Shown here: in pieces, positions 20,175-23,363 of the stretch
Layout of the letters: each line of letters begins with the position of its first letter
Position numbering within the stretch: the first letter of the stretch is position 1
Origin: a virus
Taxonomy: Duplodnaviria; Caudoviricetes
Strand: one strand, 5' to 3'
DNA: 64,000 bases
Virus record (IMG/VR): IMGVR_UViG_3300028186_000155
Notes under the pieces: generated by a model
Told to the model about the DNA's origin: nothing
Databases searched by the model: none
The model's input: only the letters and a program-made list of their open reading frames with translations
Translations under genes and position numbers: made by a program

Positions 20175-20483
20175 CTAGCGAGTCCAATTGAGTTCGAGTT
20201 TATAACCCAGTTTTTCCGCAATGATGATCAGCACTTCGAGGTCGGCATTGACCAGCGATTCGTGTTCATCATCAGCGAAATCCGGGTGGAAATACGGCAT
20301 GAGTTCCCGGCACAGAATGCCACCGATATTCAGGTAGGTTTTCTGCACGTAACGGCGTAGGCATTTGGCGCTGGTTTCTTTCTGGCCTTTGCACTGCGGG
20401 CGCGCCTGCCGGGACAATTCGTTGATTATGATGGCGTATAGTTCTGCCTTCATAGTGTTTACAGTTGTTGTCATGCTCGACAT
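20175..20483 (-). CDS. Small protein with XRE/HTH-like C-terminus
   Basis: C-terminal DLEVLIIIAEKLGYKLEL. True start may be the downstream MKAELY, just after an ACTGTAAA motif. Confidence 0.55.
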   Translation of the reverse strand: MSSMTTTVNTMKAELYAIIINELSRQARPQCKGQKETSAKCLRRYVQKTYLNIGGILCRELMPYFHPDFADDEHESLVNADLEVLIIIAEKLGYKLELNWTR

Positions 20484-20911
20484 AACCCCTTTTCCAGTTT
20501 GCGCTCAACCTTCACTTGGAACGTGATGCTACGCTCTGCACGCGCAGGCAGCATGGAGAAAGCGAGGAAAACGTTACCGAGGTGTGCACGCCCAACCTTG
20601 TGGGCCTTACGGCGACCGCGCAGCCAGATGAATTTGATATCGCCGTCGTCTTTGTCCATCAGGCGCACCAGACAACGGTTTTTATCATCGTGAATTTCGT
20701 ATTTGGTGCAGGCCTGAACGTTGACGTTTTTCAGTTCTTCCACCAGCCCTTGGTGCTGCATGTTGGCCACGAATGCTTGGCACTCGGCAACCATTTGTTG
20801 CGGCGACACTTTGAACAGGCTTTCGGTCAAAGATTCTTTGAGTTGCGCGCTGATTCTTTCTTGCAGCATGCGCACCGTTTGACGTACAACGATCCGATCA
20901 ATTGGATGCAT
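20471..20911 (-). CDS. Stand-alone tail-sheath C-terminal-domain-like protein
   Basis: PIDRIVVRQTVRML...PARAERSIT parallels sheath DRINVRRL...PARSINYIT (T4 gp18, recalled). Confidence 0.65.
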   Translation of the reverse strand: MHPIDRIVVRQTVRMLQERISAQLKESLTESLFKVSPQQMVAECQAFVANMQHQGLVEELKNVNVQACTKYEIHDDKNRCLVRLMDKDDGDIKFIWLRGRRKAHKVGRAHLGNVFLAFSMLPARAERSITFQVKVERKLEKGLCRA

Positions 20912-21251
20912 TTTGTGCGGCCTCCCGTGACATGCGGCGTTCTTTTGAGCGGCCCAGTTTCCACGCGGCTTCTACGATTGCTTGGTTGATATTGCCGGGA
21001 ATTGGATCACGTGCAGTTCCCGCACCATAGCCCACGACGCCCCACATATCGTCATTGTTTTTGTGCTCTTTGCGGTAGGCCACAATCTGCTTGAACCCTT
21101 CCGCGAAATACACGTCAATTCGCAGGTACGTTTGCAGGGCCAAACAGTGGTCATTGTTGGTCAACGGTGCCCAGTCGATAGCCTCCATTTCTTCCTGCGT
21201 GCGATCAGCTGCAACACCGGCCAAACGTTCCATTTCTTTGTTGCCCATCAT
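20898..21251 (-). CDS. Small phage hypothetical protein
   Basis: WAPLTNNDHCLAL...QAIVEAAWKLG resembles a common small phage protein pattern. Confidence 0.7.
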   Translation of the reverse strand: MMGNKEMERLAGVAADRTQEEMEAIDWAPLTNNDHCLALQTYLRIDVYFAEGFKQIVAYRKEHKNNDDMWGVVGYGAGTARDPIPGNINQAIVEAAWKLGRSKERRMSREAAQNASN

Positions 21252-21574
21252 TTAATGTCCTTGAGGGTAAGCAACAGGCCAACCGGGGGATTGGCCGGGT
21301 CTTGAATATTGTTGATGAATGCAAAACGTTCCAGCGTCACAGCAGGCTGGAAACGGTCGAAGATTTCTTGCAGATTGTCACCGGGTGCCACGGTGTAAAC
21401 CGCGAAGTCACGGGCGTTTACGCGTTCGAACCACATTTCCGTATAGATCCGCACGTGGTCGCTACAGGTTGCACAACGCGTAAAGAAAACGTCACGATCC
21501 AGTGGGTCCAATTGTGAGGAAATGCGCTCGATATCAGCTGCTGTTTTATGAATTTCTTCGATCAATGCATTCAT
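21248..21574 (-). CDS. LysM-domain protein
   Basis: C-terminal YTVAPGDNLQEIFDRF...INNIQDPANPPVGLLLTL. Confidence 0.75.
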   Translation of the reverse strand: MNALIEEIHKTAADIERISSQLDPLDRDVFFTRCATCSDHVRIYTEMWFERVNARDFAVYTVAPGDNLQEIFDRFQPAVTLERFAFINNIQDPANPPVGLLLTLKDIK

Positions 21575-21583
21575 GCAGATTCC

Positions 21584-22204
21584 TTAACGGAGACGGATCA
21601 ACTGACCGGGGAAAATCAGGTCAGGGTTTTCCAGTTTGTTGATGCGTGCGAGTTCGCGCCAGCAAATGCCGAAAGTGGCGCCGATTTGGGACAACGTGTC
21701 GCCTGCAACCACACGGCAGTAACCGAGTATCAGACACTGGATCATACCGGAATAGTTGCGCACGTTGGTCAGCACTTCCTGCGGCAACGACAGGTCTTCC
21801 TTGTCGATCAGTTTCTGAATAGTTTCAGGCAGATTGTCTGCAATAAAATCGTCAGACAGTGCCTTGGGTTCGGCTGGTTTCCACAGCTTGCAGTATTTCA
21901 ACACGTTCGGCACGTCGGCGGAATCAACAGGCAACACCACAAGGCAAGTTGGCTCGGCGTTGCAGATGGTGTTTTCGTGGCCCGCGTGATGAATCAGCGT
22001 TTCCTGAATTTTCAGGAATTCGCGTTGAGTTGCACGCACCACAACCTTGCGGAAAGATTCGTCAAACCATTTGAAATAATGGGCACGTTGGGCGCCGTCG
22101 AGGCAGGTGAACTTGTCGTGTGCAGTCAGCACCGAATGCGCGACCAGTGTAGGCACCATGTAATCGGGCGCGTCTTCACGTACAGCGATGTACATTTTCA
22201 ACAT
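21584..22204 (-). CDS. Pth2 (peptidyl-tRNA hydrolase 2)-like domain fused to LysM
   Basis: KMYIAVRED, VAHSV, KWFDESFRKVVV, TCLVVLP; C-terminal VVAGDTLSQIG...INKLENPDLIFPGQLIRL. Confidence 0.75.
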   Translation of the reverse strand: MLKMYIAVREDAPDYMVPTLVAHSVLTAHDKFTCLDGAQRAHYFKWFDESFRKVVVRATQREFLKIQETLIHHAGHENTICNAEPTCLVVLPVDSADVPNVLKYCKLWKPAEPKALSDDFIADNLPETIQKLIDKEDLSLPQEVLTNVRNYSGMIQCLILGYCRVVAGDTLSQIGATFGICWRELARINKLENPDLIFPGQLIRLR

Positions 22205-22587
22205 TTTGGGAGTCCATGACAGAAAGAAACTTCGTGTTTTTTCGCGTAGACGTGGGCCAGCCGACGACTACGGAACCACAGTTGAATCATCGGGGCCTTG
22301 GTGAACGTGACGTATGCCCCTTTGCGCCCACTCTCGACCGTGTAACGCGGTGCCGTGTTGTGTTCCGTGATCAGCTGCGCCCAATCCTGCAAAAACTTCA
22401 GCATTTTCGAATCAGGATTTTCAATGGCTTCGCACGTCGATTCCATGGGCGCTGGGGAGTTTGCCCAATCCATGCGCTGGATCTTGAACGGTTGAAAACT
22501 CATACCGTGCGGCGCGTTTTCGAAATTGACCGTGAACTCTTCGGGCCGTTTGCCGTAATCGGAAAATCCATCTGCCACGAAAATCAC
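22198..22587 (-). CDS. Truncated tail-tube (T4 gp19-like) fragment fused to a small basic module
   Basis: GTG start at 22587 (GTGA overlap, AAGGA upstream); RPEEFTVNF...FQ and ENPDSKMLKFLQDW resemble gp19 RPNLFQVEI...FQ and ...QKFVDW (recalled). Confidence 0.55.
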   Translation of the reverse strand: MIFVADGFSDYGKRPEEFTVNFENAPHGMSFQPFKIQRMDWANSPAPMESTCEAIENPDSKMLKFLQDWAQLITEHNTAPRYTVESGRKGAYVTFTKAPMIQLWFRSRRLAHVYAKKHEVSFCHGLPKC

Positions 22588-22859
22588 GTGCGGATTCCTT
22601 CTTTCAACACCTGTTCGATGTTGAGGTCGGCGCACTTGAGCAATTCGATCAGATCGTCATAGTTGAAGCGGTCGATATGCCCGCTCAACAAATCCTGCAA
22701 CCGGCCATTAGAAATCCAGAGCTTCTGACAGATTACTTCTGGATTCTGGCCCCAGCTTTTGATTTCACGAACAAGGCGGCGCATCAGGAAAGAGCGCAGA
22801 CGCATTGCAGGAACTTCATCGGCAGGCAGCAAATGTTCCCAAACGCAATGGTTATTCAT
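22584..22859 (-). CDS. XRE-family HTH protein (HigA-like)
   Basis: ICQKLWISNGRLQDLLSGHIDRFNYDDLIELL. Confidence 0.75.
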   Translation of the reverse strand: MNNHCVWEHLLPADEVPAMRLRSFLMRRLVREIKSWGQNPEVICQKLWISNGRLQDLLSGHIDRFNYDDLIELLKCADLNIEQVLKEGIRT

Positions 22860-23188
22860 TTTTCAGGCTTCCTGTATACGTCGGTAATCAGGTCGGTGCG
22901 CGTAATGTGCGGAATGGCACCCGGCTTGATGGTTTCGCTCAAAATGAGATGCGTGTGTTCCGGCGTTTCTTCAACGACTATCGGATACGGACCTTCACCG
23001 AACACGCGCTGTTCCCCGGCAATCAACTCAGATGAAATTCCCAAACTTTCGTACATGCGCGCCTGAAGCTGTTGTGCCTCAGCTTCACCCCACGTAACCC
23101 AGCCACGTGTCGGACCCTTTTCGGCAGGGACCACAATGGCCCCAGTTTCGTCAGGTTCTGCCTGCGAAATATCCTGTTCAATGATCAT
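22856..23188 (-). CDS. Small protein containing a portal-like segment
   Basis: AEPDETGAIV...QQLQARMYESLGISSELIAGE resembles the portal LYxxLxIPxxxL region (recalled). Confidence 0.45.
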   Translation of the reverse strand: MIIEQDISQAEPDETGAIVVPAEKGPTRGWVTWGEAEAQQLQARMYESLGISSELIAGEQRVFGEGPYPIVVEETPEHTHLILSETIKPGAIPHITRTDLITDVYRKPEK

Positions 23189-23363
23189 CTGATTTTTCCT
23201 CGATTATTTCGCCGGTTTTTGCATCGCGTGGCACGTACCACTGGCGATCATTCGGCAATTCCCATCCGGCAGGCAGTGTGATATCGATTTTCAACATGTT
23301 GTTTTCGATATCTTCCGGGCTGTTGTTGGTTTCGTCGCAAATCACTTCCCAATCATGCGGCAT
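23178..23363 (-). CDS. 61-aa protein carrying the tail-sheath CDxxNNxP loop
   Basis: WEVICDETNNSPEDIENNMLKIDITLP vs sheath YRVVCDTTNNTPSVIDRNEFVATFYIQP (recalled). Confidence 0.7.
   Translation of the reverse strand: MPHDWEVICDETNNSPEDIENNMLKIDITLPAGWELPNDRQWYVPRDAKTGEIIEEKSDDH

Follow-up and report, generated by a model that had tools for sequence, protein, structure and literature searches.

Two small-protein families of the sbcC-sbcD island in a Lu11-like jumbo Pseudomonas phage are built from the handshake domain of its own tail sheath

The window analyzed here, a stretch of 64,000 nucleotides (nt), corresponds in reverse complement to bases 1-63920 of a virus record of 314,224 bp that carries direct terminal repeats (IMG/VR record IMGVR_UViG_3300028186_000155, designated G000). 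The source is a Lu11-like jumbo Pseudomonas phage of 314 kb. Between its sbcC-like and sbcD-like genes lies an island of small open reading frames (ORFs), and the comparisons below show that two gene families of this island, represented by o146 and o61, derive from the C-terminal (handshake) domain of the tail sheath that the phage itself encodes. The o146 protein corresponds to this domain on its own, with a conserved hairpin loop exchanged for a basic module, and o61 carries the loop-bearing hairpin, which in relatives forms the N-terminus of a helix-turn-helix (HTH) protein. The reading we favor, to which we assign a probability of only about 0.35, is that these proteins act as a sheath-binding buffer or sensor with a nucleic-acid-binding output. 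No published description of the island's sheath-derived proteins was found in literature searches.

The island consists of 15 minus-strand ORFs encoding 44-237 amino acids (aa) between sbcC (25178-27487) and sbcD (19122-20165). At nine of its 16 junctions the neighboring frames share 4 nt (ATGA/GTGA) and at five they share 7-32 nt, whereas the remaining two are 9-nt gaps; the initial annotation had described a run of small coupled ORFs between the two genes, and these 15 intact, mostly 4-nt-overlapping frames bear that description out. The island genes sit in the replication/repair region, outside the structural region, and the true sheath genes are located elsewhere. Two full sheath paralogues (530 and 546 aa) and two tube paralogues are encoded in the genome, along with a portal and a canonical gp25; two tail-sheath proteins have likewise been reported for the phage group (PMC7412058). 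The island features on which the argument depends are as follows.

20471..20911, minus strand: o146, 146 aa, a stand-alone tail-sheath C-terminal (handshake) domain, from profile and hhalign matches.
20582..20710, minus strand: basic insert module of o146, approximately residues 68-110, with an RGRRKAHKVGR helix, in place of the sheath loop.
22198..22587, minus strand: o145, 129 aa, starting with a GTG at 22587 that is coupled to the o91 stop; its C-terminal ~40 aa are the basic module.
22584..22859, minus strand: o91, an HTH_37 (PF13744) DNA-binding domain protein, the C-terminal part of an ancestral hairpin-HTH protein.
22856..23188, minus strand: o110, the variable linker piece of the ancestral hairpin-HTH gene, aligning to the middle of Lu11_0114 and to a 210-aa ORF of the relative L009.
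23178..23363, minus strand: o61, 61 aa, with a copy of the sheath C-terminal hairpin (WEVICDETNNSPEDIENN...) in residues 3-30 (23274-23357), from blastp.

The assignment of o146 is carried by its family rather than by the single sequence. The Pfam profile PF17482 (Phage_sheath_1C) matched o146 with an expect value (E) of 1e-3 and 19.4 bits against a curated cut-off of 26.9, and it also matched, in the same register, three of seven close family members; among 26 family members, 10 matched, the best with E 5.8e-8. When the o146 family was aligned by hhalign with the C-terminal 125 residues of the clade's sheaths, the match had an E of 5e-8 when 18 sequences were used and of 4.7e-10 when 26 were, the latter over 105 columns; the probability was 95-97% (96.6% with 26 sequences). 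Aligned are both helices (INxRRL ... GxYD), the initial strand of the hairpin (IHD, where the sheath has ICD), and the last strands. The top PDB sequence match of the family profile was likewise a tail sheath (9ev2, E 0.007), with T4 gp18 further down. A profile search of 1.84 billion representatives returned 26 clusters, all of them small proteins of 94-257 aa. Since o146 begins at the domain boundary and most family members stop right after the last core strand, the protein has neither the N-terminal nor the C-terminal arm; by the same alignment it is not a full sheath, as the N-terminal and middle domains and the handshake arms are missing. These profile comparisons confirm the sheath C-terminal domain at 20471 that had been proposed from the initial reading of the sequence.

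Two other identities for o146 were considered and rejected. It is not the phage's gp25, which is encoded canonically in the structural region (G000 261461-261847) and gave an hhalign probability of 1.8% with the o146 family; the gp25/TssE/gpW profile PF04965 had no match to o146 at E up to 1. Nor do o146 and o61 represent a split domain that reassembles, as o146 retains both hairpin strands and is without the loop alone.

An AF2 model of o146 was predicted with a mean local confidence score (pLDDT) of 72; the insert and the strands reached 84-94. An exhaustive VIA-align search with this model found the type VI secretion system (T6SS) protein TssE (6gj1_D; Z 6.2, 96 residues, root-mean-square deviation 3.2) and the gp25-like 2ia7 (Z 5.8), followed by sheath C-terminal domains of the Anabaena contractile injection system, phi812, Mu, phiKZ, and phiCD508 (Z 4.8-5.5). 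Foldseek gave weak rows of the OB-fold and single-strand-binding protein (SSB) type at probabilities of 0.4-0.6.

In place of the sheath's conserved ICDxxNNxPxxIxNN hairpin loop, o146 carries a basic module of ~35 aa that falls in a gap of the sheath in the hhalign alignment. Its RGRRxAxKxGR core is almost invariant in the family, R101 being invariant in the 26 members, and nowhere is the AF2 model more confident than in the module (pLDDT 84-94). The same module recurs in o145: residues encoded by 22234-22353 aligned with the o146 insert at E 3e-6 and 7e-6 by hhalign, and a hidden Markov model of the o146 module detected o145 (E 8.6e-5) and no other ORF of the genome. As judged from sequence likeness, the module may occur on further carriers besides these two. 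In a distant relative, a 92-aa protein (L033:4812-5090, plus strand) has a C-terminal end resembling the module (SLRTARIYVRKY). The o145 gene had at first been read as the N-terminal half of a tail tube protein, a claim that the comparisons do not support: o145 had no match in Pfam, in PHROG (where the tube family is phrog_45, T4 gp19-like), or among PDB sequences, and in hhalign comparisons with both tube paralogues of the phage, E was 0.04-0.07 at a probability of ~1%. Its AF2 model (pLDDT 60, below 50 in the N-terminal half; VIA-align Z <3) is too poor to judge the fold. What o145 shares is the o146 module.

The loop that o146 is missing is carried by o61. Within the genome, blastp aligned o61 residues 3-30 with residues 492-519 of sheath A at 54% identity over 28 aa (E 3e-7), and o61 also matched the PHROG tail-sheath families phrog_10581 and phrog_23 (E 1e-4), in agreement with the sheath loop initially proposed at 23178. 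The hairpin motif is retained at the N-terminus in all eight relatives examined. Further relatives drawn from IMG/VR were L009-L014, six in number, where L013 is Lu11 itself. In Lu11 (166 aa; Lu11_0114), L011, L012, L014, and L035 (~131 aa), the hairpin is N-terminal and an HTH_37 domain is C-terminal in one protein, and this fused form makes up nine database clusters. The sub-clade of the window, comprising the window, HRDY3, L009, and L010, has a variable insert between hairpin and HTH, and in the window the ancestral hairpin-HTH gene is broken into o61, o110, and o91. Because the fused form also occurs in two more distant branches, the fusion is parsimonious as the ancestral state. The HTH assignment follows from profile scores: against a PF13744 cut-off of 27 bits, o91 scored 29.5, the fused L011 form 34.5, and the Lu11 protein 28.1, and o91 matched a PHROG HTH family at E 1e-9. 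Conservation of the protein is highest in the hairpin, at 74% identity to Lu11 versus 32% for the remainder.

The split itself can be followed in L009, where the equivalent of o61 plus o110 (22856-23363) is one continuous ORF of 191-210 aa (L009:8883-9515); in the window, an insert with a stop codon and a new ATG separates the two, leaving an 11-nt overlap.

A third virion-derived piece lies outside the island, in the following gene.

38222..39061, minus strand: p279, 279 aa, in which residues 115-160 (38582-38719) are a copy of residues 304-350 of the portal that this phage encodes, from blastp.

This segment is 53% identical to the portal over 47 aa (E 5e-13). The PHROG portal family phrog_16240 matched p279 at E 6e-10 over a segment of ~50 residues and the true portal at E 3e-262, so that the second portal segment first noted at 38576..38725 stands. 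The protein is a composite of an N-terminal domain of 108 residues that is a widespread small phage domain (phrog_11049/872), the 47-aa portal copy, and a further ~120 aa. An ORF with the portal segment is also present in Lu11 and G001, and in HRDY3 the copy is annotated 'portal protein', a label that is probably wrong. For o110, a likeness to portal residues ~332-387, which overlap and extend the p279 segment, had a pairwise E of 0.008; the score was reached by 1 of 300 shuffles, and a three-sequence profile gave E 0.025 genome-wide. The likeness of the o110 sequence to portal is thus at most suggestive, and the portal segment initially placed at 22856 was not confirmed. Neither p279 nor o110 is a portal protein. 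A phmmer search with the portal sequence gave no match among PDB sequences.

An all-against-all comparison of all genome ORFs turned up two more fragment copies, both outside the window. A 186-aa protein (G000:C1:120113-120673; L037:614-1171) contains a 28-aa tail-fiber motif that is 61% identical to a 681-aa fiber protein (G000 242046-244091), and a 201-aa protein (G000:C1:121741-122346; L037:2242-2844) is 42% identical to residues 328-523 of a 1194-aa protein located a few genes downstream of the tube genes.

The sbcD-sbcC stretch has DNA identities of 79% to Pseudomonas phage HRDY3 and 75% to Lu11, and its gene number ranges from 6 in Lu11 through 15 in the window to 17 in HRDY3. A core nonetheless recurs, made up of a 237-aa protein (phrog_18876), the HTH_37 protein, one or two small LysM proteins, and a member of the o146 family close upstream of sbcD. 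This core is kept in four more distant uncultured relatives (L022, L024, L033/L034, and L035), in which the o146-type protein has only 16-26% identity to that of the window, and in five relatives the o146 family member is directly upstream of sbcD or one to two small genes away. Pairwise ratios of nonsynonymous to synonymous substitution rates (dN/dS) against three relatives were 0.09-0.69 for all ORFs tested, values that are rough because synonymous sites are near saturation. Ratios below 1, together with the deep conservation of o146 and the hairpin, exclude decay. The initial annotation had likewise argued that these ORFs are not decaying remnants but virion-protein mimics under selection, and on both points it is upheld, with dN/dS <1 against all three relatives and synteny kept in the distant ones; the sheath pieces and the p279 portal piece do derive from virion proteins. 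We conclude that these pieces are exapted fragments of the phage's virion proteins and not debris.

The favored mechanism starts from the architecture of contractile sheaths. The C-terminal domain of a lower-ring sheath subunit is a docking platform for paired N- and C-terminal strands from two upper-ring subunits; docking proceeds by beta-sheet augmentation, and a gp25/TssE-type sheath initiator consists of this platform on its own (10.1101/2021.12.18.469577). Because this mechanism is established and o146 appears to be an acceptor without donor strands, we infer that o146 binds the arms of free sheath subunits. It, and perhaps the hairpin too, would engage the free arms of unassembled subunits; being acceptors unable to donate, they would cap or buffer sheath monomers, and the basic module and the HTH domain would tie sheath binding to a nucleic-acid-binding or transcriptional output. 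The set would then be a sheath-sensing or sheath-buffering device that is expressed with the replication and repair genes. It fits a passive decoy poorly because the hairpin is ancestrally the N-terminus of an HTH_37 protein, and because the loop of o146 has been swapped for a basic module that is also present in o145. A complex prediction of full-length sheath A with o146 scored 0.00, which speaks neither for nor against binding.

Several observations weigh against this mechanism or against parts of it. The N-terminal helices of the o146 model have a pLDDT of only 61-67, its structural matches are middling (Z <8) and supportive at most, and Foldseek of the model against the PDB returned nothing at E <0.001. 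Binding of nucleic acid by the basic module is a guess from its composition. In L033, a more distant relative, the hairpin is absent from the HTH protein, which makes the hairpin a later addition to a pre-existing regulator and one that may be dispensable to it. Two distant members of the o146 family (contexts L023 and L031) are encoded away from sbcD. Finally, the island's only copy of ACTGTAAA, the core of a putative middle/late promoter annotated in Lu11, is at the downstream end, just after o146.

An alternative in which the sheath pieces and the p279 portal piece serve as immune decoys, occupying host sensors of virion-protein surfaces without firing them, would account for two features directly: the copied pieces are the most conserved motifs of sheath and portal, and the genes lie in the replication/repair region and not among the structural genes. 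Known immune sensors grip whole folds, however, and a hairpin of 28 aa or a segment of 47 aa is a small bait; moreover, a decoy would not be expected to be fused to an HTH domain or, in the case of o146, to have lost the most conserved sheath loop. There is a precedent in DSAD1, which mimics the tail tube protein and traps DSR2 (PMC10973363), but a 2026 survey has no sheath sensor among its 13 targets and names sheath merely as a possible future target (10.64898/2026.01.04.697583). On this balance we regard the decoy explanation as doubtful.

The sheath ancestry of o146 and o145 might instead be purely historical, with the scaffolds exapted as DNA- or RNA-binding accessories of SbcCD or of gene regulation. 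The position of o146 next to sbcD, with zero to two small genes between them in all Lu11-like relatives examined, would follow naturally, as would the fact that the module is the most conserved and best-predicted part of the protein, and the weak OB-fold/SSB-type hints from Foldseek point in the same direction. But the sheath-like N-terminal helices and C-terminal strand are still recognizable in 26 diverged members, so these parts have been selected too, the two distant members noted above are not near sbcD, and no significant match to any nucleic-acid-binding family was obtained. A purely historical ancestry strikes us as unlikely.

Also unlikely, in our estimation, is that o146 is an assembly factor or minor virion protein, such as an extra sheath initiator, terminator, or chaperone that a tail made from two sheath paralogues would require. 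The VIA-align resemblance of its predicted fold to TssE/gp25 initiators would suit such a role, one homologue has been auto-annotated by the Joint Genome Institute (JGI) as baseplate assembly protein W, and the group indeed has two sheath and two tube paralogues (two sheaths: PMC7412058). Against it, a canonical gp25 is already encoded elsewhere in the genome, and o146 lies among repair genes, coupled to sbcD or to a preceding small gene, outside the tail module; the hairpin-HTH protein and the basic insert would be left unexplained.

Quite improbable is a role as dominant-negative poisons of competing myophages, tailocins, or T6SS, in which an acceptor-only domain would halt foreign sheath polymerization. 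Pseudomonas hosts do carry R-type tailocins and type VI secretion systems, and o146 has the form of a platform without donor arms. The closest relatives of the pieces are nevertheless the phage's own sheath A, and for that reason a poison would hit the phage itself unless the interface of its own sheath had diverged.

Functionless debris left by illegitimate recombination in a hyperplastic region is very hard to sustain: although the relatives differ in island content (Lu11 with 6 genes, the window with 15), o61 and o110 arose from the split of a longer gene, and other fragment copies occur elsewhere in the genome, the ORFs are intact and coupled with dN/dS <1, the hairpin is better conserved than the rest of its protein, and the o146 family persists down to 16% identity.

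The remaining features of the island and its borders are these.

19122..20165, minus strand: sbcD-like nuclease, the island's downstream border (Pfam Metallophos, E 2e-10).
20458..20465, minus strand: the island's only ACTGTAAA element, at the 20471/20483 junction, the positional equivalent of the putative Lu11 promoter upstream of sbcD.
21248..21574, minus strand: o108, a small protein with a borderline LysM match (19.8 bits against a cut-off of 20.9).
21584..22204, minus strand: o206, with a PTH2-like N-terminal domain and a C-terminal LysM (phrog_5822, E 3e-49).
25178..27487, minus strand: sbcC-like ATPase, the island's upstream border; the homologue is annotated as SbcC-like in relatives.

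Of the two LysM domains initially recognized, the one in o206 is clear (PF01476, E 8e-10; 39 bits against a cut-off of 20.9), but that in o108 is borderline, as its score above indicates; small proteins at the corresponding position of o108, just upstream of the sheath-like gene, have LysM matches in L022, L024, and L035. The PTH2 match of o206 (E 1.3e-4, 22.6 bits) is just under its cut-off of 23. In L011, L012, and L014, the PTH2-like and LysM domains are separate genes. LysM is a generic peptidoglycan-binding domain, and its counting among the virion-protein mimics was not sustained. Homologues of o206 are labeled 'endolysin' in Lu11 and HRDY3 on the strength of the LysM alone; no catalytic lysin domain was detected in o206, and the label is probably wrong. 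NCBIfam gave sub-cut-off LysM/PTH2-type matches for o206 and otherwise nothing. PADLOC had no match for ten proteins, including island proteins, and found no related defense protein.

The ACTGTAAA motif is real, with 18 copies in the window against 1.2 expected, a 15-fold enrichment, and an extended form of roughly AAACTGTAAAyA. Its strand is the gene strand; the exception is a copy on the minus strand at 44653, at the change of orientation near 45 kb. Sites at 3152, 11117, 31041, 46537, and 63459 serve as examples. The island, initially said to be served by this motif, has one copy; its other genes are presumably transcribed by read-through from upstream, where the nearest copy is at 31041. 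The TAATTTA motif, which had been set beside it as a counterpart preceding probable virion genes, is present in 4 copies against 3.5 expected and is not enriched.

Just downstream of sbcD (17724-19004, minus strand), the window encodes a 426-aa lysine/alanine/proline-rich protein with three near-identical repeats of the GPGRPxGSKNKPK type; the L033 protein at the equivalent position has a faint AT_hook match. In the window's last positions (63900-64000), GAGGAA/GAAGAA hexamers are repeated up to the terminus; this run lies at the end of the genome record or past it. Mapping to the contig covers bases 1-63920 only.

Several known systems resemble parts of this arrangement. The sheath initiators T4 gp25, T6SS TssE, P2 gpW, and XM1 gp15 are, like o146, small stand-alone handshake-fold proteins, and they accept the terminal strands of sheath subunits (10.1101/2021.12.18.469577). 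In contrast to them, o146 matches sheath profiles by sequence and not GPW_gp25, lies among repair genes, has a basic insert for a loop, and coexists with a canonical gp25. DSAD1 of phage SPbeta, which inhibits DSR2, is a small tail-tube mimic that sits in the trigger pocket of an immune sensor (PMC10973363), whereas the island pieces are recognizable sequence copies of the phage's own sheath, as the p279 piece is of its portal, and an HTH domain or a basic module is attached to the sheath pieces. Regulators of the HTH_37/HigA type (PF13744) consist of a short N-terminal peptide and a C-terminal HTH, as do the ~130-aa fused relatives. The N-terminus of HigA2-type antitoxins binds the partner; in the phage proteins, the N-terminal peptide is a copy of the sheath hairpin, and a toxin partner was not identified.

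More broadly, several giant-phage lineages might share an undescribed strategy in which small early or middle proteins copy conserved virion-protein interfaces and are each joined to a common output module, an idea that we hold only tentatively and consider doubtful at present. The copied interfaces would be the sheath handshake platform, the hairpin, the central portal segment, and the fiber motif, and the proteins would serve as baits, blunting the host's virion-protein sensors, or else would sense how far the phage's assembly has come. The island would be the version of the Lu11 group, with the HTH domain and the basic module as its outputs.

Stand-alone handshake platforms are otherwise known only as baseplate initiators, whereas o146 sits among repair genes with its loop exchanged, and the loop-bearing hairpin that it is missing reappears at the N-terminal end of a protein that resembles a transcription factor. 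Phage records with named Pseudomonas hosts have been deposited for Lu11 and HRDY3, which should make a direct test of the question possible. If the pieces are decoys, undiscovered host sensors of the tail sheath would be implied. If binding to sheath arms proves true, these proteins would be the first soluble factors to regulate or buffer the assembly of contractile sheaths, and virion assembly would be linked to gene expression in the phage.

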